The notes under the pieces: generated by a model
The model's database searches: none
The model's input: the letters and a program-made list of their open reading frames with translations, nothing else
Told to the model about the DNA's origin: nothing
Made by a program: the position numbers and the translations under genes
Assembly: GCA_964016885.1 (NCBI GenBank)
Contig: OZ024746.1
Coordinates: forward strand, 13,578,001 to 13,642,000
DNA: 64,000 nucleotides
Source of the DNA: Eledone cirrhosa
Taxonomy: Eukaryota
Direction of reading: 5' to 3'
Shown here: one piece after another, positions 1-47,125 of the stretch
Layout: every line of letters begins with the position of its first letter
How positions within the stretch are numbered: position 1 is the first letter of the stretch

Positions 1-7744
<7,744 letters not shown>

Positions 7745-7941
7745 TATGTACACGTACATACATATATGTATACAGACGAACAGTAGTATGTATATATACA
7801 TACATGCACACATATATATATGTACGTATGGATTCATCGAACATATATTATAATGCTCGGTGTGTTTGTAAACAAACATCCCGTATTAAGCCGTAGTGTG
7901 GAAAAACCATCGTTGCTCGTTTGTTCAACACTGACAAAGGA

Positions 7942-7984
7942 ACGCTGTACTAGTTTCAAGCTTATTAGCTATCGTCAGCAACGT
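7942..7984 (-). ncRNA. Type I minimal hammerhead ribozyme motif (Penelope-like element type)
   Basis: Minus strand reads ACGUUG-CUGACGA-U AGC UAAUAA GCU U-GAAA-CUAG-UA^-CAGCGU: 6-bp stem I, intact core, palindromic ACUAGU stem III; stem I extends imperfectly to 7923/8009. Confidence 0.85.
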
Positions 7985-8488
7985 ATACCTTCCTGCCAGA
8001 TTGTTGAACGTATATACTTACCTCATGCATATTAACGGCATATTAACGGCACCCGGCTGATTAACCCACTCGATATGCAAATTGGGCTACTCAGCCGTTA
8101 ATATTCTTTTTTCCAAATACCACTTTGGAAGAAGAATCAGGATGGAGAGAGAGGTGCTGTACCCCAGCTAGTTTTATGAAAGGTGGGTGAAAGTGGCGAG
8201 AATGGCCCAAGTGAATGGGCCTTCTCTCTATATCAGCCTGTAGGTTGAGGAAAAGGAGGAGGAGAGGAAAGGAGTACAAACTCTTCGTACTCCTGGAGAT
8301 GAGGGTTGCACATTTTTTCGGGGGTATGTGTTACCCATATAAACTGTCTCCCCCATTGGGGAAAATCAACTAAATTTTTAAATTGCATTTGTGATAACAT
8401 TTTACACGTTTTTTATTGTATGTAAATTTCCCCCTTTGTATTTGTCCCCTTCTTTTGTGCCCCTGTGGCTAATAAAGAAACATATCTA

Positions 8489-8556
<68 letters not shown>

Positions 8557-8620
8557 CATATCTCTCTCTCTGTCTCTCTCTCTATATATATAATGCACGT
8601 ATGTATATATATATATATAA

Positions 8621-8900
8621 TCATCACCGTTTTACGTCCGTTCTTCCACGCTAGCATGGGTTAGATGGGTTGTCCTGTTGTGGGCAGTGTCTGGTCGGCT
8701 GACCATGCCTTGCTCATACAGGAACTGATTTGGCTTGATTTCTACAGCTGGATGCCCTTCCTAGCACCAACCCCATTTACAGTGAGTGCTGGGTGCTTTC
8801 CCCGTGACGCCTACACGTCCACTTTACAGTGTGGGCTGGGTGCTTTTTTGCCGTGGCACCTCCACGACCACCTTGCAGTGGGGGGTGTGGGGGCATATTG
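8621..8900 (-). mobile_element. SINE/LINE 3' portion with RTE-like tail (family B)
   Basis: Near-identical to 63804-64000; shares CAGCTGGATGCCCTTCCTA and the (CAT)n tail with 58128-58479. Confidence 0.8.
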
Positions 8901-9064
8901 TCTATATGCTTCAGCTTGTACCCATGGGAGGTAGGGTACTCTGTATTACTGCGTGACGCCAGAGGTCACGGTCGTGTGTCATTGCCTTTGACAGGTATAC
9001 ATATACATATATATATATATATACATATATATATATCATCATCATCATAATGCACATATGTATA

Positions 9065-9097
<33 letters not shown>

Positions 9098-9125
9098 CAT
9101 CATCATCATAATGCACATATGTATA

Positions 9126-9158
<33 letters not shown>

Positions 9159-9269
9159 CATCATCATCATAATGCACGTATGTATATATATATATATATA
9201 TATTTATTAAAATAACAGATTAAAGTTTAAGCAAAGAATCGCTGCTTTCACCCTTATTATTATTTTATT

Positions 9270-9285
<16 letters not shown>

Positions 9286-9314
<29 letters not shown>

Positions 9315-9331
9315 GTATATATATATGTATA

Positions 9332-9372
<41 letters not shown>

Positions 9373-9373
9373 G

Positions 9374-9404
<31 letters not shown>

Positions 9405-9421
9405 GTATATATATATATATG

Positions 9422-9453
<32 letters not shown>

Positions 9454-9702
9454 TGTATATATATGTATATATATATATATGTATATATATATATGTATAT
9501 ATATGTATATATATATATATATGTATATATATGTATATATATGGATATATATATATGGATATATATGTATATGGATGTATATGTATATATATATATATGG
9601 ATATATATGTATATGTATATATATATGTATATGTATATATATGTATATGTATATATATATGTATATGTATATATATGTATATGTATATATATATGTATAT
9701 AT
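9286..9702. repeat. (TA)n/TATG microsatellite
   Basis: Direct inspection. Confidence 0.95.
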
Positions 9703-9885
9703 AATTGTTTCTACTTTAGGCACAAGGCCAGCAATAACCCAGTGCATTACTGGTACTTTATTTTATCGACCCCGTAAGGATGAAAGGCAAAGTCAACCTC
9801 GGCGGGATTTGAACTCAGATCGTAAAGGGACGTAACTATGCTGGAAAGCATGGCGTCCGACCCTCTACCGATACTGCCAATCCAT
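9703..9885 (-). mobile_element. tRNA-derived SINE (family A), young copy
   Basis: Minus strand has A box TGGCAGTATCGGTAG and B box GAGTTCAAATCCC; almost identical to 18612-18797. Confidence 0.85.
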
Positions 9886-9956
9886 CATCATCATCATCGT
9901 TTAACGTCCATGTTCCACGCTTGCATGTATATATATATATAATGCACGTATGTATG

Positions 9957-9997
<41 letters not shown>

Positions 9998-10181
9998 GTA
10001 TATATAATGTGGTTGGTGTTAGGGAGGGCATCCAGCCGTAGAAAACCCACCAGACATTCCTATACGAGCGAGACAACCAATCTTGTTTCAAGTGGGAAAA
10101 TTACCGTCCAAACCCATGCTAGCGTGGAAGATGGACGTTAAACGATGATGATGATGAAGATGATGAATGCACGTATGTATG

Positions 10182-10226
<45 letters not shown>

Positions 10227-10830
10227 ATACATCATACATATGTATATATATAAATATGTATGTATACGTACGTACGTACATACATATGTACATAAGTATA
10301 AATATAAATATATATAAATATAAATATATATATGTATGTATGTAGGGAGCTGATATGACTGTTCTCTCTTCGATTATTTCATGCACAAATATTAATCATC
10401 TTGATAGAAGCACTTAATGAGCGGCGGTGGTGGCGGCATATTGATGGAAAGCTGGGCACACAAACACCTTAATGATAAAAATAAACATGAACACAAGGCA
10501 TACTTACATGTATGTATTGCAGAGAACCCACTAGCCACACACACACACACACACACACACACTCGGAGAACGTATACATGTATATTATACAGCAACTATG
10601 AAACATTCACCAGTGATCGTACATGTATTAATGACAGACTGCTTAACCGCATACACATGCATTCACGTATGCAAATACATACGTATGCATTAGCGTTAAT
10701 GTGTCGTCAGTATACACACACACACACACATACACACACGCAGATACATTGTCGTTAGTCCACACACACACACACAGAAGCATTGTCGTCAGTGTATACA
10801 CACACACACATACACACAAACATTGTTGTC

Positions 10831-10945
<115 letters not shown>

Positions 10946-11608
10946 TCGTCAGTACTCACACACATTCTCTCACTGAATTGACACCAGTGTTGATGCGGTG
11001 GCGCACTCACACACTTGCATCGATGTGTGGGTGTATACAAATTCATCCTTATATTGCCGTTGGTTTTATATACACATTGATTTCAGTATACACAAAGGAA
11101 TTTAGTGCAGTGCCCCGGGTATTGAGAAGAGCAAGGGGTGGTGTGTCAGTCGGTAGGTCGGTTTGGGGCCCCACTTGAATTATGAGATGAACTCTCCTTG
11201 AAAAAAAAAAAAAAAAAAAAAAAATCACGGAGGCACTTTCACATACACAGCTACGGTCATACACACACACACGCGTGCTTCGACGGGAATCATCACATAC
11301 CTACCTAAAACATTGCATGATTGAGCGTGTCAGCAAAGGAGGAATTTTTGTATAAGTGTGTCGGTATATATATATATATATATATATAAATGAAAAGTAT
11401 AGAGATTATTGTAGCACGAAGCCAACAGTATTCCATAATATATAAGTGACTATAGCGTCAAAATGGAAAAATAGTTAACGTAAGATGTGGGAAAATAATT
11501 CAAACTCAATTCAAAAAGAATCAGGATATAGATTCATCCACAGAATTTGGTGAAATCCAGGGAAAAATCAATCGAGCCATAACTCAGAATAAAATAAAGT
11601 TTAAAATA

Positions 11609-11665
<57 letters not shown>

Positions 11666-11696
11666 AGATCAAAAGATGGTTAAAGGAGTTCCATTA

Positions 11697-11767
11697 TATT
11701 TTATTATGCGCATTTCAAAAACAAACATCATCATGCAATAATATTTGTGTTTTCATCAGATAAAATA
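11697..11767 (-). ncRNA. Type I hammerhead ribozyme motif in a ~170-bp Penelope-like LTR fragment between (TA)n tracts
   Basis: Minus strand: UAUUUUAU-CUGAUGA-long stem II-GAAA-UGCGCA-UA^-AUAAAAUA; perfect 8-bp stem I and palindromic stem III. Confidence 0.85.
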
Positions 11768-11830
11768 GAACATGATATGAAGGCTAAAAAACACTTGTGG
11801 ATAGTGCAGTTTTAAATCAACATATCATTA

Positions 11831-11870
<40 letters not shown>

Positions 11871-12317
11871 TAATGATTGTTGAGTGAGATGGAGTTAGTC
11901 AGAGTATCGCTTAAGGTTAATGTATTAAATATGTGTGTGTGTGTGTGTGTGCGTGTCTATACATATATGTGTGTGTGTGATGGTGTCTATATTTATGTAC
12001 CTGTGTGTGTGTATATAGGTATATAAATATATAATGCATGTTATTGAAAGGAAATTGCAACCTAGATATAGGAAATAACTTTCTAAACACGAAATATAGA
12101 TGCGTGTCTCTACTGTTAATTTATTTGCACTACCCCCATTTCAACGACCCCCGCCACCTCCATTATTAATGATATTGTGTGATTAGAGGTGACAGCTTGT
12201 TGACAAAAGATTACCAGTTTTTTTATTCAGTTGAAATCATTCTGAATATATTGATAAAATATAAAATAAATATCTTTTTTTCCCCAGTAAATATGAGCCT
12301 GTCTCAGATTAAATAAA

Positions 12318-12361
<44 letters not shown>

Positions 12362-12390
12362 TGTGTTTGTATACATTGCGCGCGCGCGTG

Positions 12391-12443
<53 letters not shown>

Positions 12444-12515
12444 TATATATACATCTATGTGTGTGTGTATACATCTATGTATATATAAATAAATGTGTGT
12501 ATATAAATAAATGTG

Positions 12516-12556
<41 letters not shown>

Positions 12557-13782
12557 CTGTGTGTGTGTGTATATATATAAATCTGTGCGTGTGTCTATAT
12601 AAATAAATAATATATCATTATTTTTATTATATAATCGATTTCCTTCATCCTTAATCATCTGATTCTGCTTTGAAAATTAAATTCGTTTGTTATATTATAA
12701 ATCCTATATTTTCTTCCCTTTCTCTCTATTTCTGTGTAATTTACGGTTTAGAAGCAAGAAATCACCGTGGCTTCAATATTTTGTAAAATAGGGGAAGAAA
12801 AAACAAAACAAAAAAAAAAACGATATTGTTTGTTGCTCATCTCCTAATGGTTACGACTATTATTTCCCTTCATGAATTTAAATAAATGAGAACTTCACCT
12901 GCTCTCATCACCAAATCATTTCTGTACATATATATGAACTGTATCGTGTCTTGGAATCGATAATAATATATATTAGTCAATTTATTACTGCGGTCCGATG
13001 CTACGACCACCTTTTTATACTTAGAATTGTTTATGTAGAAAGACAGAAATGTTAATTTGTTCTCTCCTCCCCTCACTCTCTTGCTTTCCCAACCACAAAA
13101 CTATTGGAATTTCAGACGAGCCACATAGTGGAATTAACTTTTCATTATATCTAATCACTGCTCTTTTCTTTTCTTTCTTTTTTTACCATCTTCACCTTTC
13201 ACCCCTTTTAGTGTTTGATGAAATAAGTACAGCTTTTTGTAATTTTTTGCGACCCTAAAGCGTTTATGAATTAGGCTGTCGTAAGAGAATATGTAATCTC
13301 GTGGTAAATGAATGTTAGTAGGTTTTAACTGGCCAACTCCTGGTTGTTGCTATTTACTTTGTTACTGTGGTTATTGTAAATAGAATAACCACGGTAAAAG
13401 CCGTATTTTAGTGGTCAATTTATGACGAATCGAGTTCTATTTCAGTTTTTATTTTATTTTTAAAAAGGTCTTATTTATTTCCCCTGTTATATCAGTAGGT
13501 TTAGTGGAAAAGTTAGATATTATCTGTATTTCAGGAGAGAGAAAAAGTTTATAAATTGTTTCTACATTTGGCACAAGGCCAGCAATTTGAAGGTTAGGGA
13601 AAAGTTGATAAAATACTGGTGCTTTATTTTAGGGATTCCGTAAGGGTGAAAAGGAAAAGCTAACCCCGACAGGATTTGAAATAATTATACCGATGGTCTA
13701 TGAGTGAGTGTACAAACAGAATAAAAGAGCAATCAACACATGTGGAACATGTGTGTGTGTGTGTGTGTATGTGTGTGTGTGT

Positions 13783-13823
<41 letters not shown>

Positions 13824-14379
13824 AATATATATAGTTTAATGTTAATAAATAAAAAAACAATAAATAAATAAATAAATAAACAAAGCAATATTATGAATAT
13901 TTCAGGAATTACGTACTAGAAAACGACACCCATTACCTTAAGCACGAACGCGCAATATAAATTAAGTTTATCATCAACAACAATAACGAAATATAATTTC
14001 TAAGTTCTACACAAACAAATACACTCATCACGCAAGCAGTAATAATAGTAAATAAAAATAGTGCGTGTGTTTTGATTGGCAAAATTGACCACATGACCAT
14101 CCCCAAATATAACAATAGTTTCTTTGTAAATCAATTTTCCATTTTAGTGAAACCAAGTAAAAGAATTGCGTGTGTCTGTGTGTTGTTTTCGCTTTTATAC
14201 CCAAAACCTTCCGAAGTTCCTTCTTGAATAGGCGGCGAATTGGCAGCCATTAGGGCGTCAGATTAAATGTTTCAATATCTGTTTTGACTAACTGCTCTCT
14301 GAGTTCAAATCCCGACGTGGTTGACTTTGACTTTCATCCTTTCTAGTATTGGGGTTGATCCTTTCTCTATCACGTTCAC

Positions 14380-14504
<125 letters not shown>

Positions 14505-15147
14505 GAAGAAATCGGTTGTGTTCCAACTTGGATAGGGATGGGCTCCGCCAGGTTTAAAATGCGTGCCAGAACGTCTGGAACAGTTTAATAATACTATTAC
14601 TAATATATATATATATATATATGTGGAAATAACGAATTGATTTTGAGACACTGGGAAAACTCAGTTTTTTTTAGGAGAAATTTAAAAAAGAAATCCGTTG
14701 TTTCTGGAATAAATTTCTTCTTCTCATTGGAGATATCATCTCCTATCGGGAGTTGAGGACCTTCTGCACACTCCCAATAGAAATCTCTCTTTTATTCTAA
14801 GTCATTGGATTGGCCATATCGAAGCCACGACTTCTTACCTACATAAACATGGGTCGTCATAGACTGAGTTAGTTAATCGGTGCTACTGATATGAAAAATG
14901 GGTCGGGGGAGCGTACCTCGAACACCGCAGAGTGTACTGGGTGCATTCTATCGCGACACCAGCTCTAGGGAGGTTGTCATCTCTTTGACACAACTGAAGA
15001 GTCCGACTCTTTGTTTGGCAAGTTTTCTACAACTGTCTGCCCTTCCTATCACAAACCACTTTACAGAGAGTATTGGGTGTATTTCTCGTGTAGATAACCA
15101 GCACTAGACAGGTGCCGTGCTCTTCACATAACTGAAAAGTTCTTTCC

Positions 15148-15180
<33 letters not shown>

Positions 15181-15185
15181 TATAG

Positions 15186-15371
15186 GGCGGTGGTTTGGCA
15201 GTATCGGTAGAGCGTCAGACACCATGCTTTGCAGCATAGGAGTTATGGCCCTTTTTGCTCTGAGTTGAAATCCCACCAGGTTAACTATGCATTTCATCCT
15301 TACGGGGTCGATAAAATAAAGCACCAGTAATGCATTGGGGTAATTGCTGGTCTCGTGCCAAAAGTAGAAAC
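15186..15371 (+). mobile_element. tRNA-derived SINE (family A)
   Basis: A box TGGCAGTATCGGTAG, B-box-like GAGTTGAAATCCC, body TTTCATCCTTACGGGGTCGATAAAATAAAG. Confidence 0.8.
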
Positions 15372-15734
15372 CATAGGTGGTGGTGGTGTAAGGATACCAT
15401 GTCATAGGTGCATGCTAGGTGGGGAAAGTATGTCGTGGGTAGCATACAAGTGTGATGATTGGGGGGGGGGGGTCGCCTTCGATAGCGTGTATGGTAGCGA
15501 CGGGGTGGGGAAATGTTGTGATGAGCGTGTGTGTGTAGTGGAGAGTGTAATGTGATGATGAGGGCATTATGTATATATCGATATGTGCGCACACATAATG
15601 TATATTCTACATAGTTTGTATCGATATATGACACGCACGCACACACACGACACGACACGACACCACACCACACCACTCACTCACTCACTCACTCACTCAC
15701 TCACTCACTCACTCACTGTCTCTGCCTGTCTGTC

Positions 15735-15781
<47 letters not shown>

Positions 15782-16116
15782 GCGCTATATATGTCTACAC
15801 ACAATCTATACTCTATATATTGTGTGCTGAAGAGGAGCCTGTAGCTAAGGGTTTAATATCATTGTATACTGTATATATGTCTACATCTGGAGGCACGTGG
15901 CCTAGTGGTTGGGGTTTTATGATCATGTCCTGGATTCGATTCCTGGACTTGGTTGTTTTCTGTTCTTGAGCAAAACATTTCATTTCACGTTGCTCGATGG
16001 ACTGGTGTCTTGTGTTAGGGGGCTTGTACCCTCAGTTCCTTAACGCCAAGGAAACCGTGATAAGCACCGGACTTAAAACAGACTCTAGACTTGTGTATTG
16101 TATGTATATATGTTTA

Positions 16117-16193
<77 letters not shown>

Positions 16194-16792
16194 TCGTGTG
16201 TGTCAGTTCCTGTCCTGTGATTGAGCTAGTCTAAACATTTGTGATGTGTCTTATGTTTGTAACGCAGTCCGGCAAATAGAAATAAAATTATCCGAGGCTG
16301 AAATAAGTAGTAGGATCGATATGATTGACTCAATATACTTTTGAAGGCCTGGTACTGATACGGTTTTAGTTTAATAACTGAAATGTGTAAGGGTATATTT
16401 GCTCACTGTTGGATCAATATCGGTTTCGACAAAACAATTCACTCGTGAGGTTTAAGTGCAAGTGGCTGAACATTCCACAGACATGTGTACCCTTAACTCA
16501 CTACTTAACAGAGATATTCCTCCGGGAATCGAACTCGTGACCGTAAACCGAACTCTTTAACTACTAAGCCACGCACCTTCACGCAGTTATGTGTATAAAA
16601 GAAGATATGTTCGTTTTGCCGTTGTTTTTGCCGTGTGTGCCCCCTACCCCCATTTAGTACAGTCTTAGCCACTCAGGTTTTTTGAACATCTATCTAAAAA
16701 TAGACCCTACACCGCCCTATATTTATATTCCTCTCATCTTCCTCGCCTCTACCTCCCTATCATTTTTCTTTGTCTTCGTTAAAATTATTTTT

Positions 16793-17650
16793 GTTCTATT
16801 TTCCTAGTTTTCTCCATTATGTTTTCCTTGTTTTCTCCGTTCTATTTTCCCAGTTTTCTCCGTTCTATTTTCCCAGTTTTCTCCGTTCTATTTTCCCAGT
16901 TTTCTCCGTTCTATTTTCCCAGTTTTCTCCGTTCTATTTTCCCAGTTTTCTCCGTTCTATTTTCCCAGTTTTCTCCGTTCTATTTTCCCAGTTTTCTCCG
17001 TTCTATTTTCCCAGTTTTCTCCGTTCTATTTTCCCAGTTTTCTCCTTTCTATTTTCCCAGTTTTCTCCTTTCTATTTTCCCAGTTTTCTCCGTTCTATTT
17101 TCCCCAGTTTTCTCCGTTCTATTTTCCCAGTTTTCTCTGTTCTATTTTCCCAGTTTTCTCCTTTCTATTTTCCCATTTTTCTCCTTTCTATTTTCCCATT
17201 TTTCTCCTTTCTATTTTCCCAGTTTTCTCCTTTCTATTTTCCCAGTTTTCTCCTATTTTCACAGTTTTTTCTGTTCTATTTTCCCAGTTTTCTCCGTTCT
17301 ATTTTCCCAGTTTTCTCCGTTCTATTTTCCCAGTTTTCTCCGTTCTATTTTCCCAGTTTTCTCCGTTCTATTTTCCCAGTTTTCTCCATTCTATTTTCCC
17401 AGTTTTCTCCATTCTATTTTCCCAGTTTTCTCTGTTCTATTTTCCCAGTTTTCTCTGTTCTATTTTCCCAGTTTTCTCTGTTCTATTTTCCCAGTTTTCT
17501 CTGTTCTATTTTCCCAGTTTTCTCTGTTCTATTTTCCCAGTTTTCTCCTTTCTATTTTCCCAGTTTTCTCCTTTCTATTTTCCCAGTTTTCTCCTATTTT
17601 CACAGTTTTTTCCGTTCTATTTTGCCAGTTTTCTCCGTTCTGTTTTCCCG
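16793..17650. repeat. 23-bp minisatellite (TTCTATTTTCCCAGTTTTCTCCG), roughly 37 units
   Basis: Visible tandem units; the overlapping ORFs have a 23-aa period (3 x 23 nt). Confidence 0.95.
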
Positions 17651-18137
17651 CTAAGCTACCGTCACCGCGTTTCTATATCTTCCATTTCTATTGAAGTACA
17701 TTAGTTTGTATCATTTTCTCGTCTTTGTGTAATTCGCTGAAAGGCACAACATGCCTCGTGTCTCCGTTTTGTTACTTCTCAATGTGCACTGGAATGAATA
17801 GTATCAATATTAATAGATCGAAACTATAGTGATTTCCAGAGGTTGATTGAAAAGAAGGGACTGTTCGTTTTCCCGTGTTGTCTTTGTGCTGGAGCCTCTC
17901 TCTCCTCTCCTCCCCACCTCACTCCCCACTCCCCCTCACTCCCCACTATCCCCCATCCATATCTCCCTTCGCTCCCCTTCCCCATCTCCCCCTCTATTTA
18001 TCTCCCCTTTCTCTCCCCTCATCTCCCCCTTTATTCGCGTGTAACATTTGGTCCAACAGTTTGACCACTCCAGACCAATATGTGTCCAGTTGCCGATGTG
18101 GTATTCCATCGTAGTTGATATCATTAAGAAGCAGTGT

Positions 18138-18178
<41 letters not shown>

Positions 18179-18213
18179 ACAGGAACGAAGTATCAATGTA
18201 GCATCATTAAAGA

Positions 18214-18312
18214 ATTCACAAGTCTGATGAGTTATCGATTCTAGAGTCGGACGCGACCAATACCAATCATACCTTGAGCTGATCGATTGTGAAACATGCG
18301 TCAATTGTGAAT
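18214..18312 (+). ncRNA. Type I hammerhead ribozyme motif with large loop II, Penelope-like LTR fragment next to (AAT)n
   Basis: AUUCACAAGU-CUGAUGA-GUUAUCGAUU...GAUCGAUUGU-GAAAC-AUGC-GUC^-AAUUGUGAAU; stem I 9/10 bp, GUC cleavage triplet. Confidence 0.8.
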
Positions 18313-18439
18313 AAACATAATGATGCCACAGTGATACTTCATTCCTGATCATTATATATAATAATAATGATTTCTTTCTTTCTTTATTTTTTTATTTATT
18401 TATTTATTTATTTAGTTATTTATTTATATTATATATAAT

Positions 18440-18797
18440 AATTGTTTCTACTTTTTGGCACAAGGCCAGCAATTATCCTGTGTATTACTGGTACCTTATT
18501 TTATCGACCCCATAAGGATGAAAGGCAAAGTTAACCTCGGCGGGATTTGAACTCAGAATGGCAAGGACCGTAACTCTGCTTCAAAGCATGGCGTCCGACC
18601 CTCTATATAATAATTGTTTCTATTTTAGGCACAAGGCCAGCAATTACCCAGTGCATTACTGGTACTTTATTTTATCGACCCCGTAAGGATGAAAGGCAAA
18701 GTCAACCTCGGCGGGATTTGAACTCAGATCGTAAAGGGACGTAACTATGCTGGAAAGCATGGCGTCCGACTCTCTACCGATACTGCCAATCCACCAC
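18440..18797 (-). mobile_element. Two tandem family A tRNA-SINE copies (18440-18605 and 18612-18797)
   Basis: Both match 9703-9885. Confidence 0.85.
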
Positions 18798-19161
18798 CCT
18801 CTATATAATAAAACGAAGTCATCGGAAGGACCGGTGCATCTCTCCCCCCCCCCCCCTTTTTTTTTTACACACATCCACAAACTTATAGATGTATATACAC
18901 ATGTACAACACATATATATATATATATATATATATACAAACACACACACACACATATATATATATACATATATATACACACATATACACACCCGCACAAA
19001 TATATATATTAAGAAATCCATACAATTGCGTGTGTCTGCATTATAGACATCTCGAAGTTTATACAGGACTATATATACACAAATCTATTCAGATGAGTGA
19101 GTGAGTGTACGTAACTGTCAAAAATTAGTTTCACTTTTCAGACCGGCCGTTTTGACGTATG

Positions 19162-19210
<49 letters not shown>

Positions 19211-19819
19211 ACTGAAGATCACTCCTCCCCAATTCAGATATTTGTACAATCAGTTAAATGTCTTTCCAGAGTTAGTTCACCGAGTGGCCACATGTACTAC
19301 TGTTATCGTCGAAGTTGACCCCCCCCCCCCCTACCTAGTTTACTTAATATCATTCTTAGTCAAGTTTCCAGACACATTGCAAACGAAAAAAAAAAAAAAA
19401 AAAAGAAATGTTTGCGCTTTTATATCAGTACGGACACATAACTCATAAACAACTGTTTTATCGAGCGAAATAAGTATTGTTCAGTTTCTTTACCAAAGTT
19501 TTAACAATGCTATTTTTGTGAATTGTATATATATAGGGTAGGTGGGTAGTAACGTGATAGAAAACTCATTTTAGAACAATATATAGATTCTAAATAACAT
19601 TACCAGAAATTATAGCGTTTTTGTGAGATCGCATGAGTTATTGTAGAGAGTGTTTCGGCCCTTCATATAGTTTTAGGGAGGTGTTGTAACGGTTTTAGTA
19701 TCGAAAATGTTATTAATAACGTTATGACATTAGTTATCTTTGTTAATCCGGCAAAACGGATAATTCGGCATGTGCGTGGAACCAAAAGTGCCGGGAAATC
19801 GGTGTTGTACCTTTGGCAA

Positions 19820-20092
<273 letters not shown>

Positions 20093-20156
20093 ATTACCTA
20101 TTGAGTTCGCTGAGATGCAACCGGTACCAGCAGTGAAACCCATGCTAGTCCCGTCA

Positions 20157-20193
<37 letters not shown>

Positions 20194-21001
20194 GTCGGAG
20201 GTAATATTGAATAGATTGTATGATATAATTCGCATAACTAAGGCTACAATGTATCCATCACTTTTTTTTTGCGACATTATAGCAGGCATGGGCAATCCTT
20301 TTCGAGCAATGGGCCACATATGATGTGGTGATGTGGTTCATCATAAGGTGGACCGCACTACTGAAAACAAATTCAAGGTGATTTTGAAATTAGGCGATTC
20401 ATAAAGCCAAACGGACCGCTGTTTGCTCATTAGTGTCAATTCAGATAATTTGGCTGCTTTTTGTAGCAGAGGATACTTCGTTAATTTGGCGGCAGGGATT
20501 TGCGTGTGTGCACATTTTTGTTTTAACTCAATATATCAACCTTTGATTGCACAACTAATGACAACCTTTACCTCTCTTCACAAACACGGCAACATAATTT
20601 GCACTCAGTACCACATCTTCGTTCATGTGTCCTTCCTTCCTTAAGACATTAGTTTGGTTTGAGGGAGATTTGGCTGTTTTTTTTCTTTCTTTCTGACAAA
20701 TTCCGACGACCGCGTGTTGGTTCTTTTGCTGGTTCGTGAATACACGCTCTATATGTGTTGATGTGTTCGCCTCTTCCTGCGTTGTGTGTGTGTGTGTGTG
20801 TGCGCGCGCGCGAGCTAGTTTTAGTGTGTGCATATACGTGCACTGGATTGCGTGTGTGAATATGCTTGTGCCCGTCTGTGCGCGCTCGCTCTGTATCTAA
20901 CTTATGATCTGGGCTTGTGAACTAATTTCTTTTTTCTAAATATTAAGTTTTAAAAAAAATGTAATTTTTTTTTGTTTAAATTTCTAAAATCTTTTTTTTA
21001 G

Positions 21002-21071
21002 ATGTAATTTATTTTTGTAAAAGATTATAATGTCCAAAATCGCCAGTGTGCGCCAGACAACATGCCTTGCG
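21002..21071 (+). other. Candidate alternative 5' exon of ADAR2
   Basis: Strong acceptor TTTTTTTTAG ending at 21001, donor G|GTATTT at 21072; ATG 21062 gives MPC plus a phase-1 join to 29098 (MPCDGEQ...). Confidence 0.25.
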
Positions 21072-21689
21072 GTATTTAGTCGTTTTGTATTTTGTTGAAA
21101 TTGGTTTGTTATTATTGCCTTTTAGCCCTCCCTGATTAAAATATTTAACAGTAATCTATTGTAATAAGTCTATTAACATTTATGGCCTTGTATATTAATG
21201 TTAGAAATCAACACCCTGAAACCATTAAAAATTACGCCAGTGAATGTATTAAAAACACGTCCCTTCTCAACACAACTTGTAGTATTTCCTATCTTAAAGG
21301 AAATTAAATCTTTGAATCCTTGTCTTAGTTATTATAGTTTTCTTATTTTTTAATTCATATTCAATTTGTATCGACTTTACTCCCCCCCCCCCCCCTCTAC
21401 AGCTTAACAAAAGACAAACTTCTTGTTTTTAATTTAATTTATAATTTTAGACGTTATTGTTAGTGATTGCATCGGTGAAAGTATTTCTGAATTTGTGTGT
21501 GTGTGCGCGGGCGCGCAAATCGGTCGATTTAGTTGTAGTGATTAGTTTAGCTGTTATCAAATATCAACTAATATATATAAAAAAAAAAACTTCGATATGC
21601 GATAAACATAACATTTACATAAATTGTAGCACATATACAAATAGATGTGTATTTTGGTAGTTTGGGGAGAAAAATATAAATTTTTTTCT

Positions 21690-22207
21690 TGGAGTGGAGG
21701 TGGTAGTGAACGCCCCCCCCCCCCGTTCCACTGCCCCTGTATAAACCGCTTCCCACAAATTTAGACCGGAATTCCTCTCTTCATACTGAACTTAAAAAAA
21801 TATTTTGAAGAACTACAACATTTTACTTTCAGTGTGCGTGTGTTGAGTGTTTTCTCCAAGAGTAGTGTATATGGCATTTTGTCACTTTTTCTGTGAGCTA
21901 TAGGGAAATAGGCGGGAGATAGATATATAGATAAAAAGAGGGAGGGAGGTGTGTAATGGTAGTTTCAACGTAGTATGAGATGCTTTCAGTGCAGTTTATT
22001 GATCTGTTGCAGTTGTAAAGTTACCTGCTACTTTACTACTCCGCCTAACCCTTTCACTTGACTCACATCTCATATCTCACTTCAACTCTACACACTACCG
22101 CCACCGCTGCTATACTTTCTGTTGTTGACTTGCCGCAACATTTTACTGGCTCTAGCAGTGAACAGTTGTTGAAATATATTCTTCACAAGACAAACGGTAC
22201 ACAAGCG
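21690..22207 (+). promoter_or_regulatory. Candidate promoter/5' UTR of ADAR2
   Basis: C-rich tract, TATAAA near 21740, TCAGT Inr-like motifs near 21829 and 21986, and it lies at the edge of the CpG-retaining zone. Confidence 0.3.
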
Positions 22208-22313
22208 ATGTTGGCTTACTCTCGAGCTCCCTTTACACATGCTTACCACCACGTCTACAGAGAACGCCGGAGAAAGAAATACAGGAATGGATGGAATCAT
22301 GTATTACAATATT
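22208..22313 (+). CDS. ADAR2: Candidate first coding exon of ADAR2 with an Arg/Lys-rich motif (MLAYSRAPFTHAYHHVYRERRRKKYRNGWNHVLQY)
   Basis: ATG in GCGATGT context, non-repetitive coding-like sequence, donor T|GTTAGT in phase 1 matching the phase-1 acceptor at 29098. Confidence 0.55.
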
Positions 22314-22638
22314 GTTAGTTAGTTATTTTCTTTCTCGCCACTTGTTTTTGAACCCCCTCCCATCATACAAAAAATAACAACAAAAAAACAAAACAAAACA
22401 AACAACAAAAAATGAAACTACATATACTTTACGTTAAATTTATTTTTTTAATACCGACTTTTAATATTGTCATCATTCTGCCTTGTTTTTTCTTGGGGAC
22501 AGGGTGTTTATAAGATATTATTTTTTTATAATTAGTTAAAACAAATATGCAGTATTTATTTGTTTTGTTAAAACTTATTTTTAAATCAAGTTGTACTTAG
22601 TAGGATTTTGACAGTTCTCAAACTACTTGTGCATTTCG

Positions 22639-22700
<62 letters not shown>

Positions 22701-23018
22701 TATGCATTTGTTTTAGCGTGAACTTTTTTTCACCCACCTATTTTTTTAATTATTTTTTTTAAAAATATTATGCCTTGCTTTAAAAATCTGTCTTCACATT
22801 TTTGTTTTAAACATTAGATGTTTAGAATCTGACTAAAAATGTTTTCAGTTTAAAGAAAACAAAAAATTAAAGTTTGAACTGAGTAAGGTTAGGGGATTGT
22901 ATTGTTTCACTTTCTGACAATTTAAATGATGCTGTTTCACTTTCAATTTGTTAAGGATAAAAATATAATTACAAATGCCAAATATCAGCATCATCAGCAG
23001 CAGCATCAGCATCAGCAG

Positions 23019-23053
<35 letters not shown>

Positions 23054-24181
23054 CCATATACTTATCTATTTTGAATGCAAACGAAATATATCTATAAAAA
23101 AAAAAGTACTGTGACTGCAAATGTTAACCGTAAGCAGTTGCTGATTTTAAAATAAATTTAAAGTTGAAAAAAGATTTTTAAAAAATACTGAAAGTGATGT
23201 TAAAAGCAGGAACATTTGAAGAGTTCTTTGAGATATGGCTTAATAAAAAAATGTTAGAGGTGGTTTTAAAACCCCCAGCATTAAAACGAATAAATGGCCA
23301 TAGCATTTAACATATGTGCGTGTATATGCATTATATATATATATGATGTGTGTGCGAGCACATATTACATTTACACATTTCACTCATTTCACACATTATT
23401 TGGAATGTTGGCCAATGGTTTGAATTGTAACTTTTTCTTTCAGCTGAAGGCTGTGATGTTTTTTCTTCTTTAGGCTGTTATATGACCAGCATATTTTAAT
23501 GCTTTACCATATTTTATCTATCTTCTTTTGAGTTTATATGTTGTTGGGATTGATTTTGCTGTTCATCTTCTCTAGACTTAGGGGTTGGGTGGGAAACTTT
23601 GTAGTGGTGGTGGTGAGCACTTAACATATACTGTACATTTTATTCACTCAACTACATTGTGGAATTGCACCAGTTTGACATTATATAGTATTTAACCCGT
23701 TCGATATCAACCCATTTCCTCTACTTCTGCAATACAATATCTCTTGTTTTAAAGTTTTCATAGCATCTATAATAATAATTTAGTGAAAAAAAAAATTTTC
23801 TTCAGTTAACTGCCAAACACCAAGTGTAGTAATAAAACAATTTTACTAATCCCTGTAAATTCTGAATCTTTTTTCAAATTTTAATAGAAATATGCCCTTG
23901 TAGACTTGCTGTTCTCTGTTCAAACTCTACTAGGATTATTATTATTATTATCATCATCATCACACAAACTTTCTCATGCTGTCATGGGTTGGACGGGACG
24001 TTTTGAGACATTTTATGCCGGATACATTTCCTGACACCAACCGTTTTAGCTGCTTTTTACAAGGAATACAGTGTAGCTATTTTAAACCAGGATACATAGG
24101 TTTCAGTGAAAAAACCCAACACTACTAGTAATATGGCTGGATGGTGATGTGGGTCAGTGTGATGAAACTATATATATTAAG

Positions 24182-25398
24182 GCCGACACCTATATGTAAT
24201 AAGACTGATATCTATATGTAATAAGACTGATATCTATATGTAATAAGACTGATATCTATATGTAATAAGACTGACACCTATATGTAATAAGACTGATATC
24301 TATATGTAATAAGACTGATATCTATATGTAATAAGACTGATATCTATATGTAATAAGACTGATATCTATATGTAATAAGACTGATATCTATATGTAATAA
24401 GACTGATATCTATATGTAATAAGACTGATATCTATATGTAATAAGACTGATATCTATATGTAATAAGGCTGATATCTATATGTAATAAGGCTGATATCTA
24501 TATGTAATAAGACTGATATCTATATGTAATAAGACTGATATCTATATGTAATAAGACTGATATCTATATGTAATAAGACTGATATCTATATGTAATAAGA
24601 CTGATATCTATATGTAATAAGACTGATATCTATATGTAATAAGACTGATATCTATATGTAATAAGACTGATATCTATATGTAATAAGACTGATATCTATA
24701 TGTAATAAGGCTGATATCTATATGTAATAAGGCTGATATCTATATGTAATAAGACTGATATCTATATGTAATAAGACTGATATCTATATGTAATAAGACT
24801 GACACCTATATGTAATAAGACTGATATCTATATGTAATAAGGCTGATATCTATATGTAATAAGACTGATATCTATATGTAATAAGACTGACACCTATATG
24901 TAATAAGACTGATATCTATATGTAATAAGACTGATATCTATATGTAATAAGACTGATATCTATATGTAATAAGACTGATATCTATATGTAATAAGACTGA
25001 TATCTATATGTAATAAGACTGATATAGATATCAGTCTTATTACATATAGATATCAGTCTTATTACATATAGATATGTAATAAGACTGATATCTATATGTA
25101 ATAAGGCTGATATCTATATGTAATAAGGCTGATATCTATATGTAATAAGACTGATATCTATATGTAATAAGACTGACACCTATATGTAATAAGACTGACA
25201 CCTATATGTAATAAGACTGATATCTATATGTAATAAGACTGATATCTATATGTAATAAGACTGATATCTATATGTAATAAGACTGATATCTATATGTAAT
25301 AAGACTGATATCTATATGTAATAAGACTGATATCTATATGTAATAAGACTGATATCTATATGTAATAAGACTGATATCTATATGTAATAAGACTGATA
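24182..25398. repeat. 22-bp minisatellite (GACTGATATCTATATGTAATAA), roughly 55 units, with about two inverted units at ~25022-25075
   Basis: Direct inspection. Confidence 0.97.
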
Positions 25399-26539
25399 TG
25401 TTAAAATACCACAAATAATCTGTGGCATAATAGTACCTTTCAGTGATTAGAATCTGCTACAATTTGGTTTCCAGAGAACTTGACGTAGGCTAGAACGGGT
25501 TTTGCATCCCTTTCATCCCCCTGAATCATTGTCTCTATTGAAGGGTTAAAGATAGAATTGTGCAGCATTTAGTTACATCCCTCTTATGTTCTGAGTTGAA
25601 ATCCCACTGAAGTTAACTTTGCTTTTTATCCTTCATGGGGGTCAATAAAATAAAGTATCAGTAAAACCCCGGGGCTCATAATTTTTTTAATTTTTTTTTA
25701 ATTTTTTTTTAATTTTTTATTTTTTTTAAATTTATTATTTCTCTATTGAAACATATGCATTGTTTGAATTTCTCTTTTTCATTAAAATTATTTAAGTTGA
25801 AGTTTTCATTCATATTGAATTCTCACTTTAAAAGTATGTAAGAAGAGATATAGAGATGGATAGTGTGTTATTACCATACACTTTACTATAAGACTATATA
25901 TAATATGGTGCTGATTGGGAAAGGGAGCATTCTAAATTGTTAAATTAAAGTAAAAAGGAATCTATTTTAACAAAGGGTTGTATTTTACTTAAAGCATTGT
26001 GGAATAAGAAATACATATTTAACTAGGAAATAAGTTTAAATATTTGGAAGTTTCTACAAATCTGATTTTGACACTTTGGCTGTTTTCTAGAAAGTCTGTA
26101 TCGTGTTGCATAATTTTTCCTCTTCTTCTTCCTCACCCACTTATTCTTGAGAGGGTCGTAGGGACAGAGTCCTCAAACACTTCTTCCGGCAGGTCCTGTC
26201 AGAAGCAACCGTAATTGTGTAATTCAGGTTTTGGTAGTGTGTGTGTTATAGAGATGGATTAAATGTTCGAGGAGTCTATTCACTTTTTTCTGTCTCTATG
26301 GATAATTTACCCAATTCTCTCACCTATACATCGTCTATAGTCATGGTCGCTCTCTGACAGGTCAAACCTGTAGTAGTGGAAACTTCTGGTGTCCTTGGCT
26401 CTAGGGCCATCTCCCTACTCACCACCATCAGCACAGTCATTAACAGTTATTACAGTTATTTTCCATTTTGGATTCTCACACTTTCTGATTTTAAACACTC
26501 CCAGTGTTTTGATAATTCATTGTTTCATCTTTTGTCATT

Positions 26540-26588
<49 letters not shown>

Positions 26589-27349
26589 TATATATATATT
26601 ATATATTTGTTATATTTTAACGATACAATTTCTATTTTTTTTTACCTATTTAAAATAATTCTTAATATATTGTAAATGTAGTTGGTGTTAGGAAGGGCAT
26701 CCAGCTGTAAAATAGCTACCCAAATTTAGTCCTTTTCGGAGCAAGGTGTGGCATGGCTAACTCTGGCCAGACTTGCCTCCCAGTGGGGCGGCCTGTCTAA
26801 CTCATGCAAGCATGGAAAAATGGGTGCTAAATGGTGATGATGGACCATTGTGGTAACCTATACATGGTTGCTCGATCAGCTAAAATTAAGATCTGAGCCT
26901 GAATCTACTGCTTTCCCATCATATCATCTTCAATAAAGAAAGAACTCCTTAAAAGACAATGTAATTTCACATGTCCCTAAAACCATGTTAGGGTCACAAC
27001 CGTAATACTTCTGATTCTAGATTTACTCACTCAGGCTGACCTGGGGCTAAATAATAATTTTACATATCAAACTTGCATGTCATTTTATAAGATGTTCTAT
27101 TACTGGAAACAAAGAAAGCTATATTTTCTGAACTTTTGCACAATTCTGTAATATGTGATATATGGATGTATAAAGTGTTATTATATAATTACATGCTTTC
27201 ATCCTTATGGGAATCGATAAAATAAAGTACCAGTAATGCACTGGGGTTGATTTAATCGACTCTCCCCTCCCCTTCAAATTGCTAGCCTTGTGCCACATGT
27301 AGAAACAATTATATAATTACATGTGTGTAAAGCATTTCATTATATAATA

Positions 27350-27350
<1 letters not shown>

Positions 27351-27390
<40 letters not shown>

Positions 27391-27535
27391 GACACACAGA
27401 CAGACAGACAGACAGACAGACACACACAGACACACACACAGACAGACAGACAGACACACACACAGACAGACACACACACAGACACACACACAGACACACA
27501 CAGACAGACAGACACACACACAGACAGACACACAG
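27351..27535. repeat. (CA)n/(CAGA)n compound microsatellite
   Basis: Direct inspection. Confidence 0.9.
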
Positions 27536-28329
27536 TACAAGGTTGTCCAAAATACATTAGTCTTGCTTCAGTAAGAATTTTTAGAAATATGGTGTCTTGA
27601 AATTTACACACACTTTCATGTGTGTGTGTGCGCACACACACGTTTATACCTATCATTTACCCCCCTCTCCTGTACACATATACATGTGTTGTGTGTGTGT
27701 ATATATATATGTCACTATTTATTGGTTGTTTGCTGCAAGAAGTGTGAAAGCTGTGTATGTACAGACAACAAAAGCCCCCTTTAAGAGAAGCCAGCTGCCT
27801 GTCTTCTGGTTGGCTGTGGAAGAACAAGTATCATGCTTTGCTCTTGTCTTTTAAGGAATATACTTTGAAAATTTGATATCTTGTGGAATTTATCATAAAA
27901 AATATCTCTTCGGTATTCCTCTTTGTTATTCAAAGAAGAAAAACATTTGACAGTATTTGGTATTGTCAGTGATAACAGCACTGGAATAGTCGGAACATGT
28001 TAGATTCTCAGACTTTTATCTGTTGAGCAATTTTTGAAAAAAATTAACAAAAAAAAAAAAACCCTATGTAAAATTTTCTGCATTTTCTCCTTCACTTTAA
28101 TTTTCTTTATTGGTTCATAACTAAATTTTAATGTTTTAAAAAAAAAAAATGTTTATCTTTATTCTTAGTAAAATATGTACATTTTGAATTTCTTTAACCT
28201 GTATATTATGAATTATACTAACTATAGTACTAACTTGATTTCTTATTTCATTTCTACATGTAAATTACTATCAATATGTTGAAATATTTTCTACCTTGTG
28301 TATATTATTGTTGTTGCTGTTATTTTGGT

Positions 28330-28940
28330 AGCGGATTGCCAGTATTTGGTAAAATGTTGGACAAAATGCTTTGTAGTATTTAGTTGAGATTGTCTACTTT
28401 CTGAGTTTAACTGAGGTTAACTTTGTCTTTCATCCTTCTCATATTGATAAAATAATGTACCAGTTAAATTGTACCTCTAAATTGCTGGCCTTGTGCCAAT
28501 TTTAGAATTATTATATTATCATGAGGGTGTACATTGGCAGAATTGTAGATAATTACCTGTCAGATAATGGAAGTAGTGATGATGATGGTGGTGGTGGTGC
28601 TGATGGCTGACATCAATCTAATGAGTTATGTATATACGGAGTTGGTGGAGTTGTAGGGGCCCTCACACAGCGTTTCTTGGATTTTTTAAACCTGGTGGAG
28701 CCCATCCTTTTCCAGGTATGAACACAGCTGAGTTCTTCTAGAGAAGGAGAGAGAGTGAGATAGAGGGAAAATCAACCCAAGTACTAGACTGCTGCATTTT
28801 TTTAATTTTTTTTTATTGACCTCAAAAGAATGAAAAACAAGTTAACCGTGGCAGAATTTGAACTCAGAATGCAGAGAACCAGAACGAATACTTCAAAGCA
28901 TTCTATCTGATGTTCTAAACATTCTACAAATTTGCCACCT
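28330..28940. mobile_element. Two old family A SINE copies in inverted orientation (+ ~28330-28510; - ~28770-28940)
   Basis: Degenerate matches: CTGAGTTTAACTGAGGTTAACTTTGTCTTTCATCC and its complement-type GAATGAAAAACAAGTTAACCGTGGCAGAATTTGAACTCAG. Confidence 0.65.
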
Positions 28941-29097
28941 CTAATAAGTTACACTCTTTATCAAACTTTGTGCTTTTAGAAACTATTATTATATATTTTA
29001 GTGGTTTGGAATAATATTTACTGTAAGCTTTTCATTTTATCTTTAATTGTTAATAAAAGTGAAATAAAATAGTCCATTATTTTTTCTTTTCCTTCAG

Positions 29098-29865
29098 ATG
29101 GTGAACAAGATGTGAAGTCTGAAGAAGGTGAAAACAAAGACGGCAAAGGAGAAATGTCAGCCCAGAAGCGCTCCTTTCCCTGGAATGGTGAAAATGGCAG
29201 TGGTCGTCCATCGAACAAGAAGAAGAAAGCTCATGGTCCTACTCTTCCAAAGAATGCGTTGATGCAACTTAATGAAATAAAGCCTGGCTTGGAATTTCAA
29301 TTAATGGGTCAAACTGGGCCTGTTCACGCTCCAACATTTAATATGAAAGTGGAGGTGAATGGCGAAATCTTTGAAGGAGCTGGTTCTACAAAAAAGAAGG
29401 CCAAACTTCAGGCTGCAGAGAAAGCTCTACGATCTTTTGTTCAATTCCGAAATGCATCTGAAGCATATCAGGCGATGGGCAAAAAGGTGAATTCGTTAGA
29501 TTTTACATCAGATACAGCAGATATTGGTACTTTTATAAATGATTTTGAAGATAAAGTGGAAGGTGAAAATAATGAAGTTGCTCAAGGGGTTCCCAAAGCA
29601 AACGGTTCCCATACAAATCAGAAATCTACGTTACCTCCCCAGCCTGCTGGTAAAAATCCTGTAATGATTTTGAATGAATTAAGGCCAGGCTTAAAGTATG
29701 AATTTGTTTCTGAATCAGGTGAGAGCCATACCAAAACATTTGTGATGCAGATTACAGTGGATGGCATTGATTTTGAAGGTACTGGCCGTAACAAGAAGCA
29801 AGCAAAAGCTAGGGCTGCCCAAGCTGCCCTTGCACAAGTTTTTAATATGCAACTGTTCCCACCTG
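29098..29865 (+). CDS. ADAR2: ADAR2 (double-stranded RNA-specific adenosine deaminase, ADARB1-like) exon encoding bipartite NLS, dsRBD1 (~29247-29441) and dsRBD2 (~29652-29845)
   Basis: [49 protein letters not shown] and [37 protein letters not shown] match vertebrate ADAR2; acceptor TTTTCCTTCAG and donor G|GTGAGT; 768 nt, phase 1-1. Confidence 0.97.
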
Positions 29866-33232: not shown

Positions 33233-33314
33233 CATCTATATTAAAACTATTATACTCTGCTATGTATTGAGTACCTTACTTACTGTGGTTACCTCCGATT
33301 CAACCCGGAATAAC

Positions 33315-35740
<2,426 letters not shown>

Positions 35741-35741
35741 A

Positions 35742-35818
35742 CAGGGTGTCCCCAAAATGTATACATACTTCAACAACATTCTAATCAAAGTGTGTATACA
35801 TTCTTTTGGGACATCCTG
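35742..35818. mobile_element. Tc1/mariner-type MITE
   Basis: TA-CAGGGTGTCCCCAAAATGTATACA...TGTATACATTCTTTTGGGACATCCTG-TA; TIRs and TA target duplication. Confidence 0.85.
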
Positions 35819-46074: not shown

Positions 46075-47125
46075 TCATAGGTAGTGTCTTTCATTAGAAA
46101 TATGGCAACGAAAGGGTTCCTGACATAGACAGACAGTGTCTTTCATTAGAAATATGGCAACGAAAGGGTTAATGACGTAGGCAATGTCTTTCATTAGAAA
46201 TATGGCAACGAAAGGGTTAATGACGTAGGCAATGTCTTTCATTAGAAATATGGCAACAAAAGGGTTAATAACATAATGTCTTTCATTAGAAATATGGCAA
46301 CGAAAGGGTTACTGACATAGGTAGTGTCTTTCATTAGAAATATGGTAATGAAAGGGTGAATGACATAGGTAGTGTCTTTCATTAGAAATATGGCAACGAA
46401 AGAGTTAATGATATAGACAGTGTCTTTCATTAGAAATATGGCAACGAAAGGGTTAATGATATAGACAGTGTCTTTCATTAGAAATATGGCAACGAAAGGG
46501 TTAATGATATAGACAGTGTCTTTCATTAGAAATATGGCAACGAAAGGGTTAATGATATAGACAGTGTCTTTCATTAGAAATATGGCAATGAAAGGGTTAA
46601 TGACATAGGTAGTGTCTTTCATTAGAAATATGGCAATGAAAGGGTGAATGACATAGGTAGTGTCTTTCATTAGAAATATGGCAACGAAAGAGTTGATGAT
46701 ATAGACAGTGTCTTTCATTAGAAATATGGCAACGAAAGGGTGAATGATATAGACAGTGTCTTTCATTAGAAATATGGCAACGAAAGGGTTAATGATATAG
46801 ACAGTGTCTTTCATTAGAAATATGGCAACGAAAGGGTTAATGATATAGACAGTGTCTTTCATTAGAAATATGGCAATGAAAGGGTTAATGACATAAGTAG
46901 TGTCTTTCATTAGAAATATGGCAATGAAAGGGTGAATGACATAGGTAGTGTCTTTCATTAGAAATATGGCAACGAAAGAGTTAATGATATAGACAGTGTC
47001 TTTCATTAGAAATATGGCAACGAAAGGGTTAATGATATAGACAGTGTCTTTCATTAGAAATATGGCAATGAAAGGGTTAATGACATAGGTAGTGTCTTTC
47101 ATTAGAAATATGGTAAGGAAAGTAT
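46075..47125. repeat. 48-bp minisatellite, about 21 units, derived from a TTAA-MITE terminus
   Basis: Unit AGTGTCTTTCATTAGAAATATGGCAACGAAAGGGTTAATGATATAGAC; 16-aa periodicity in the minus-strand ORF. Confidence 0.95.

Follow-up and report, generated by a model that had tools for sequence, protein, structure and literature searches.

Octopod ADAR2 has an alternative first exon whose basic peptide resembles the vertebrate R-domain in composition only

Introduction

Does the ADAR2 gene of an octopod carry a counterpart of the Arg-rich R-domain of vertebrate ADAR3 and ADAR2R? The question is raised by a short, basic reading frame in a 64,000-nucleotide stretch of the Eledone cirrhosa genome (here called the window, with positions counted from its first letter), for which an initial annotation had proposed a first exon resembling that domain. 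According to the available portions of the literature, the vertebrate R-domain is about 11 residues long and works as a nuclear localization signal (NLS) that binds KPNA2 (PMC2761270), while in ADAR3 it has six consecutive Arg and binds ssRNA in vitro, the relevance of which was called unproven by the authors (PMC2761270; PMC9418441). Conservation of the equivalent exon 0 of ADAR2 extends to zebrafish, and its donor immediately follows the motif (PMC2626628, Maas and Gommans 2009), and editing by the resulting isoform, ADAR2R, resembles that of the major form (PMC2626628; PMC9479739).

A short coding exon upstream of the dsRBD exon

On the forward strand, the ATG at 22208 starts an open reading frame of 35 codons (22208-22312; MLAYSRAPFTHAYHHVYRERRRKKYRNGWNHVLQY), followed by one further base, T22313, and by GTTAGT, which places a phase-1 GT donor at 22314. 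The acceptor AG lies at 29096-29097, and T22313 plus two bases from 29098 form a Tyr codon through which the frame continues into the dsRBD exon. The start codon, the donor and the in-frame join reported in the initial annotation all agree with the window sequence, and the coding part of the exon is 22208-22313. The intron behind it (22314-29097, forward strand, 6784 nt, GT..AG) does not contain the extra-dsRBD exon discussed below and houses a 22-nt minisatellite of 56 copies at 24168-25399.

The peptide has a net charge of +7, with 8 K/R and 1 D/E, and its basic cluster runs from R18 to R26 (RERRRKKYR, 22259-22285, forward strand), of which K23 and Y25 are not conserved in relatives. Elsewhere in the repeat-masked window, at least 7 K/R in 9 residues were found in 1 of 152 other ATG-started open 35-codon frames; a cluster of this kind is uncommon, yet it arises by chance.

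A separate ATG-started frame at 8215-8370 (forward strand), single-copy in the window, contains the Arg run RLRKRRRRGK and scores above the 22208-22312 peptide against the vertebrate exon-0 profile described below, where it serves as a chance control. It is followed by AATAAA and a microsatellite, has a donor-like phase-1 site (GTATGT) and no Pfam match, and is possibly the 3' end of a retroelement.

Splicing of the exon in related octopods

The ADAR2 isoform X2 of Octopus vulgaris and O. sinensis (P0002; CAI9725040.1, XP_029637251.1) begins with a peptide identical to that of the window at 28/36 positions (E 2.5e-13 vs the window), and its gene models join this peptide to the two-dsRBD exon at the same point as 22313->29098. 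It is an orthologous first exon with the same junction, in a protein with two dsRBDs and a deaminase domain; the O. vulgaris/O. sinensis peptide differs in having Met-Lys-His where the window has Lys-Lys-Tyr, as well as one extra codon and an extra N-terminal Met. P0002 is an automated model, on which our literature searches found no publication.

We also placed contigs from 4 of the 24 listed sequencing runs (X1, X10, X19, and X23) on positions 20810-22620. Run X1, from a related octopod (organism A), is of kind "RNA?", RNA labels being guesses. Over 22206-22313, one X1 contig of 166 nt (depth 52) differs from the window by 7 substitutions and has no gap, and 30 loose letters of the same contig, read by eye, match 29098-29127 at 28/30 positions. 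The contig thus jumps from the GT boundary to the AG boundary, which is the pattern expected from spliced RNA. The same 7 substitutions appear in a DNA run, X23 (organism E), whose alignment spans 21879-22349; its depth bins and insertion offsets place all indels upstream of the ATG. The A>G difference at 22296 is not attributed to self-editing, as the G is also present in the DNA of X23.

The junction 22313->29098 predicted by the initial annotation is used in a related octopod, on the agreement of one contig in one relative (X1, organism A) and one pair of gene models (P0002). It was seen in relatives of the window's species; the contigs of X19 and X10 do not reach the exon, and their blanks are neutral. 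X19 gave two depth-2 pieces, 21746-21896 and 21930-22080, both letter-for-letter identical to the window. The region 21522-21679 is a dispersed repeat, on which many diverged X19 contigs with unrelated flanks pile up.

Taken as an exon, 22208-22313 is confirmed as a real coding alternative first exon of octopod ADAR2, and an octopod isoform containing it is already in automated annotation. No description of the exon turned up in the literature found by our searches, whose coverage lacked most subscription journals, and the available parts of PMC9989829 and PMC6651903 hold nothing on it.

The peptide has few detectable relatives. Residues 1-44 of P0002 as query retrieved only P0002 itself among 2 candidates, a two-sequence profile retrieved only P0002 among 13 candidates, and phmmer over 213 fetched proteins again gave P0002 only. 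Against 1.84 billion representatives, phmmer returned one repetitive 2699-aa protein at 36% identity, judged spurious on reading. There was no usable match in the ESM Atlas and none for the peptide in Pfam, and a metagenome scan gave 14 loci, with the exon in 0 of the 9 inspected. Such negatives weigh little for a 35-aa query against clustered sets. In these sets, the only credible match was P0002 of O. vulgaris/O. sinensis. Conservation in other cephalopods is likewise partial: the peptide is present in O. vulgaris/O. sinensis, but an equivalent exon occurs in only 1 of the 22 members of two cephalopod clusters, in which single models may miss minor exons.

Place of the exon in the ADAR2 gene

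The exon at 29098-29865 (forward strand) is the shared two-dsRBD exon of ADAR2, equal to coding exon 3 of squid, and matches PF00035 in two stretches (E 3.4e-30), giving two ADAR2-type dsRBDs. Its product is 97% identical to O. vulgaris ADAR2 and 86% to the cloned squid sqADAR2a; an internal Met lies in frame at 29154, and the first dsRBD is preceded by a Lys-rich stretch that looks bipartite. The deaminase exons are absent from the window; the orthologue P0002 carries PF02137. At 29190-29210, the window retains a two-residue Gly-Ser stretch that it has in common with Argonauta and squid and that is absent in O. vulgaris, O. sinensis, and O. bimaculoides.

In the squid gene, as described in the available part of PMC10278661, coding exon 3 is the two-dsRBD exon and the introns are 40-65 kb long. 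Searching the window by tblastn with three-dsRBD isoforms found neither the extra-dsRBD exon nor the canonical exon 1, and no other annotated first exon was found there either. By analogy with squid, the extra-dsRBD exon and canonical exon 1 would be located further upstream in this species. With the extra-dsRBD exon upstream of 22208, transcripts starting here would encode the two-dsRBD form only. Compared with squid sqADAR2a and sqADAR2b (ACO52474.1, ACO52475.1; PMC10278661, PMC7192619), the gene is the same and the product would resemble sqADAR2b in having two dsRBDs. The route differs, however: sqADAR2b arises by skipping exon 2 from a distal exon 1 conserved across coleoids, whereas the octopod two-dsRBD form would start internally, with another N-terminus.

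Among the O. vulgaris/O. sinensis models there are five distinct first coding exons, and also a start at the internal Met, all on the two-dsRBD exon. Models from abalone, limpet, Gigantopelta, scallop, and oyster (P0143, P0167, P0169, P0172, P0191) likewise join short first exons to it, and these are mutually unrelated. Molluscs may often use an internal start of this kind, in which the extra dsRBD is bypassed. The short first exons found in Pecten, Patella, Saccostrea, O. sinensis X3, and amphioxus were compared with the window peptide, and homology was rejected (p 0.05-0.98).

As to the extra N-terminal dsRBD known from squid ADAR2a, it also occurs in gastropod and bivalve ADAR2 models, including P0007, P0009, and P0011 (by eye, P0004-P0022). 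Three dsrm stretches were found in Gigantopelta, Crassostrea, and Mytilus, and two passed in Haliotis and Patella; scallop models have two extra dsRBDs by eye, and Owenia, Lingula, and amphioxus have two dsRBDs. The extra domain looks mollusc-wide.

Evidence for an internal start

The stretch upstream of the exon, 21983-22207 (forward strand), is a leader without any ATG and probably represents 5' UTR and/or proximal promoter of the internal start. Reading upstream in frame, the first stop codon is met at 22046, and the chance of finding zero ATG in 21983-22207 at the local ATG rate is ~0.02 (a post-hoc figure). The X1 contig is collinear with the window for 28 letters upstream of 22206, and upstream there is a single AG in frame and in phase 1 (22204-5), which has no pyrimidine tract and reads TG in the relative. 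A cassette-exon reading of 22208-22313 was rejected on both grounds, the unsuitable AG and the collinear contig. We take 22208-22313 to be a first exon, with an internal promoter as its likely source.

Base composition changes sharply just behind the exon. With tandem repeats masked, the CpG observed/expected ratio (o/e) is 0.84 over 7800-22313 and 0.25 over 22314-64000, with GpC o/e at ~1 on both sides. The change point is at 22480 (support 22337-23134; 2dLL of 145 vs a maximum of 18.7 in 200 permutations), and the low CpG o/e behind the step persists to the end of the window. In the available part of a study on O. bimaculoides (PMC9476566), methylation marks the bodies of broadly expressed genes; its pattern MP2 is a methylated body with an unmethylated start site, and MP3 is a long gene with an unmethylated first third. 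From composition, we infer that the step at 22337-23134 marks the start of gene-body methylation near a start site, in the manner of MP2, and the internal start would then be broadly or germline active. The step could instead reflect MP3. If methylation does start at 22337-23134, the 8-22 kb region would be outside the methylated unit even if it is an intron of the distal isoforms.

A model for the internal first exon

The reading that we favor, with moderate confidence, is that 22208-22313 is an alternative first exon of octopod ADAR2, likely under an internal promoter, that gives a two-dsRBD product only, and that its basic patch is likely of independent origin, loosely constrained and not an R-domain. 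A promoter within the gene, situated near 22 kb and downstream of the extra-dsRBD exon, would transcribe a short first exon, and splicing of this exon to the dsRBD exon would yield an mRNA in which ATG 22208 comes first. Initiation would then occur at 22208, where the leader has its first ATG and position -3 is a purine in both sequences compared, and translation would add 54 residues before the internal Met at 29154 of a two-dsRBD ADAR2. The main job of the exon would be the choice of promoter and isoform and not the peptide, a layout echoed in other molluscs.

Published accounts give cephalopod ADAR2 a single first exon and two splice forms, to which an internal promoter would add a third form. 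The CpG footprint suggests that the internal start may be the broadly active one in the octopod, and work on canonical clones may miss this third form.

A possible convergent analogue of ADAR2R

The best of the alternatives, which we regard as possible but doubtful, keeps the same internal first exon and makes its patch a convergent analogue of ADAR2R, acting as an importin-alpha signal and/or an RNA-affinity tag that would render the two-dsRBD enzyme nuclear, in contrast to sqADAR2b, which is cytoplasmic and axonal. The layout is common to the octopod exon and to vertebrate ADAR2R (PMC2626628) and the ADAR3 R-domain (PMC2761270), as far as the available parts of these papers go: an alternative upstream coding exon, a candidate separate promoter, and ~50 added residues with a basic patch. 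The vertebrate exon 0, however, joins a small exon 1 that contains the major start, whereas the octopus exon joins the dsRBD exon directly. In mammalian ADAR1 (p150/p110), too, promoter choice sets the N-terminus of an ADAR, but this is another paralogue, with an effect on localization shown there and hypothesized here.

The patch itself gives a mixed answer. V16G, K23M, Y25H, and N30S separate the window from organisms A and E, and M23, H25, and S30 are also found in O. vulgaris, so the "RRRKK" of the window is likely recent and lineage-specific (the polarity being the probable one). All three octopods share the core R18-x-R20-R21-R22-x-K24-x-R26, with five basic positions retained while their neighbors change, and a function could explain it. 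NLS patterns, including the loose K[KR]x[KR] rule, were used in a motif scan. In the window species, K-K-Y-R fits this loose rule, and the net charge of +7 is also in line with an NLS-like role; against this, O. vulgaris lacks a K[KR]x[KR] match, neither peptide fits the stricter NLS patterns, a bipartite-like basic stretch is already present in the shared exon, and the unrelated frame at 8215 has an equally basic patch.

A convergent signal would have some explanatory value, as sqADAR2b is cytoplasmic and axonal for a reason left unexplained in the available part of PMC7192619, where the localization of sqADAR2 generally is unaccounted for. One could tentatively imagine an independently evolved octopod switch resembling ADAR2R, in which a broadly active internal promoter yields a nuclear two-dsRBD form with an Arg-rich leader for import or RNA binding and the distal promoter yields the cytoplasmic or axonal forms. 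We give it limited credence; were it true, promoter choice would decide the intracellular site of cephalopod editing. Should the leader alter localization, the exon would offer a direct test of a partly cytoplasmic ADAR2 and a case of convergence with vertebrate ADAR2R.

Constraint on the peptide and the leader-only reading

According to a second alternative, which we judge rather improbable, only the promoter and the 5' leader matter, most protein starts at Met 29154, and the frame that encodes the peptide is open incidentally. The models of O. bimaculoides and one of O. vulgaris do start at this Met, and the evidence for selection on the peptide is modest. Between the window and the exon of organisms A and E, there are 3 synonymous changes over 21 sites and 4 nonsynonymous changes over 84, a ratio of 0.34 that is not significantly below 1 (Fisher p 0.14), and the comparison of exon with flank gives p 0.10. 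The noncoding 21960-22190 has at least 9 substitutions in X23, and constraint at the nucleotide level could explain the conservation.

Against an incidental frame, the ATG and the frame are kept in three species, the sole O. vulgaris indel is a whole codon, X1 and X23 have 0 coding indels vs 37 gap letters in the flank of the alignment, and 22208 combines first-ATG position with the purine at -3. A substitution-only neutral simulation, run at distances d estimated from flank differences and 31-mer shares, gave the probability of a frame staying open and at least as identical as 0.04 at d 0.12 and 0.001 at d 0.19 for organisms A and E, and at most 0.02 at d 0.19-0.5 for O. vulgaris. Relative to O. 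vulgaris, the peptide has 7/35 residue changes (two within the patch) and one indel vs 6/254 in the dsRBD exon (p 2e-4). These comparisons suggest that the peptide is under mild constraint and changes far faster than the dsRBD exon.

Comparison with the vertebrate R-domain

True homology with vertebrate exon 0 and the ADAR3 R-domain, inherited from the bilaterian ancestor, is very unlikely. In its favor are the upstream position in an orthologous gene, a separate coding exon with its own ATG, and a register that places octopus F9 and Y17 on the vertebrate F and Y/F. The vertebrate set comprised 20 exon-0 entries (16 unique) among the 120 matches listed, with a profile built from 13 of them; ADAR3 was known from description only. 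Against this profile, the window peptide scores 25.2 and that of O. vulgaris 23.1, vs 62-96 for vertebrate members (self-inclusive), while unrelated Lys-rich stretches reach up to 29.2 and the control frame at 8215 reaches 29.4. Full shuffling gives a profile p of 0.01-0.02, and shuffling with K/R positions fixed gives 0.95 and 0.82. Pairwise, 4/16 vertebrate peptides have p<0.05 under full shuffle (5/16 for the control frame), and none of the 16 beats the shuffles with K/R fixed. The full-shuffle signal is thus due to K/R clustering alone, as it is lost with K/R fixed. The best match, shark peptide P0089, follows the same course, from a full-shuffle p of 0.002 (window) and 0.04 (O. vulgaris) to a K/R-fixed p of 0.10, and the non-basic score of the F9/Y17 register has p 0.21-0.23 on the whole set. 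The statement in the initial annotation that the likeness is one of composition only was accurate, and no similarity goes beyond it.

The details of the patch differ as well. Among 11 residues, 7 are K/R in the window and 6 in O. vulgaris, vs 9-10 in all 19/19 vertebrate ADAR2R entries; the longest Arg run is 3 in place of an almost wholly basic stretch; and 9 codons separate R26 from the donor, which in vertebrates stands directly behind the motif. The octopod patch is shorter and interrupted, with M and H at positions 23 and 25 in both relatives examined. The exon is fast-evolving and has so far been seen in octopods only; its peptide changes by 20% within octopods, whereas from shark to primates the vertebrate motif hardly varies. 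Of 96 non-cephalopod invertebrate ADAR2 entries, 82 had an inspectable N-terminus, those of amphioxus, Lingula, and Owenia among them, and a run of three Arg is absent from the first 45 residues of every one; these are redundant gene models that can miss rare exons. Lys-rich patches in 8/82 were assigned by eye to the shared exon. Three database searches returned only P0002 or the spurious repeat protein.

The suggested identity as an R-domain-like exon and its ancestry in bilaterians do not survive these results: we reject R-domain homology of the octopod exon, whose basic patch is likely of independent origin, and the exon gives no ground for tracing the R-domain to the ancestor of bilaterians.

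Alternative first exons often add mitochondrial signals, but a presequence leader is extremely unlikely here, as it has in its favor the composition only (8 K/R, 1 D/E), while the amphipathic moment is not above that of shuffles (p 0.37-0.89), only one Arg lies within the first 17 residues, and Pro occupies positions 8-9.

Repeats in the window

Beyond the intronic minisatellite, the list of open reading frames reveals AT-rich microsatellites in very long tracts, together with two more tandem arrays, at 1-7750, 33300-35800, 16700-17700, and 46240-47150.
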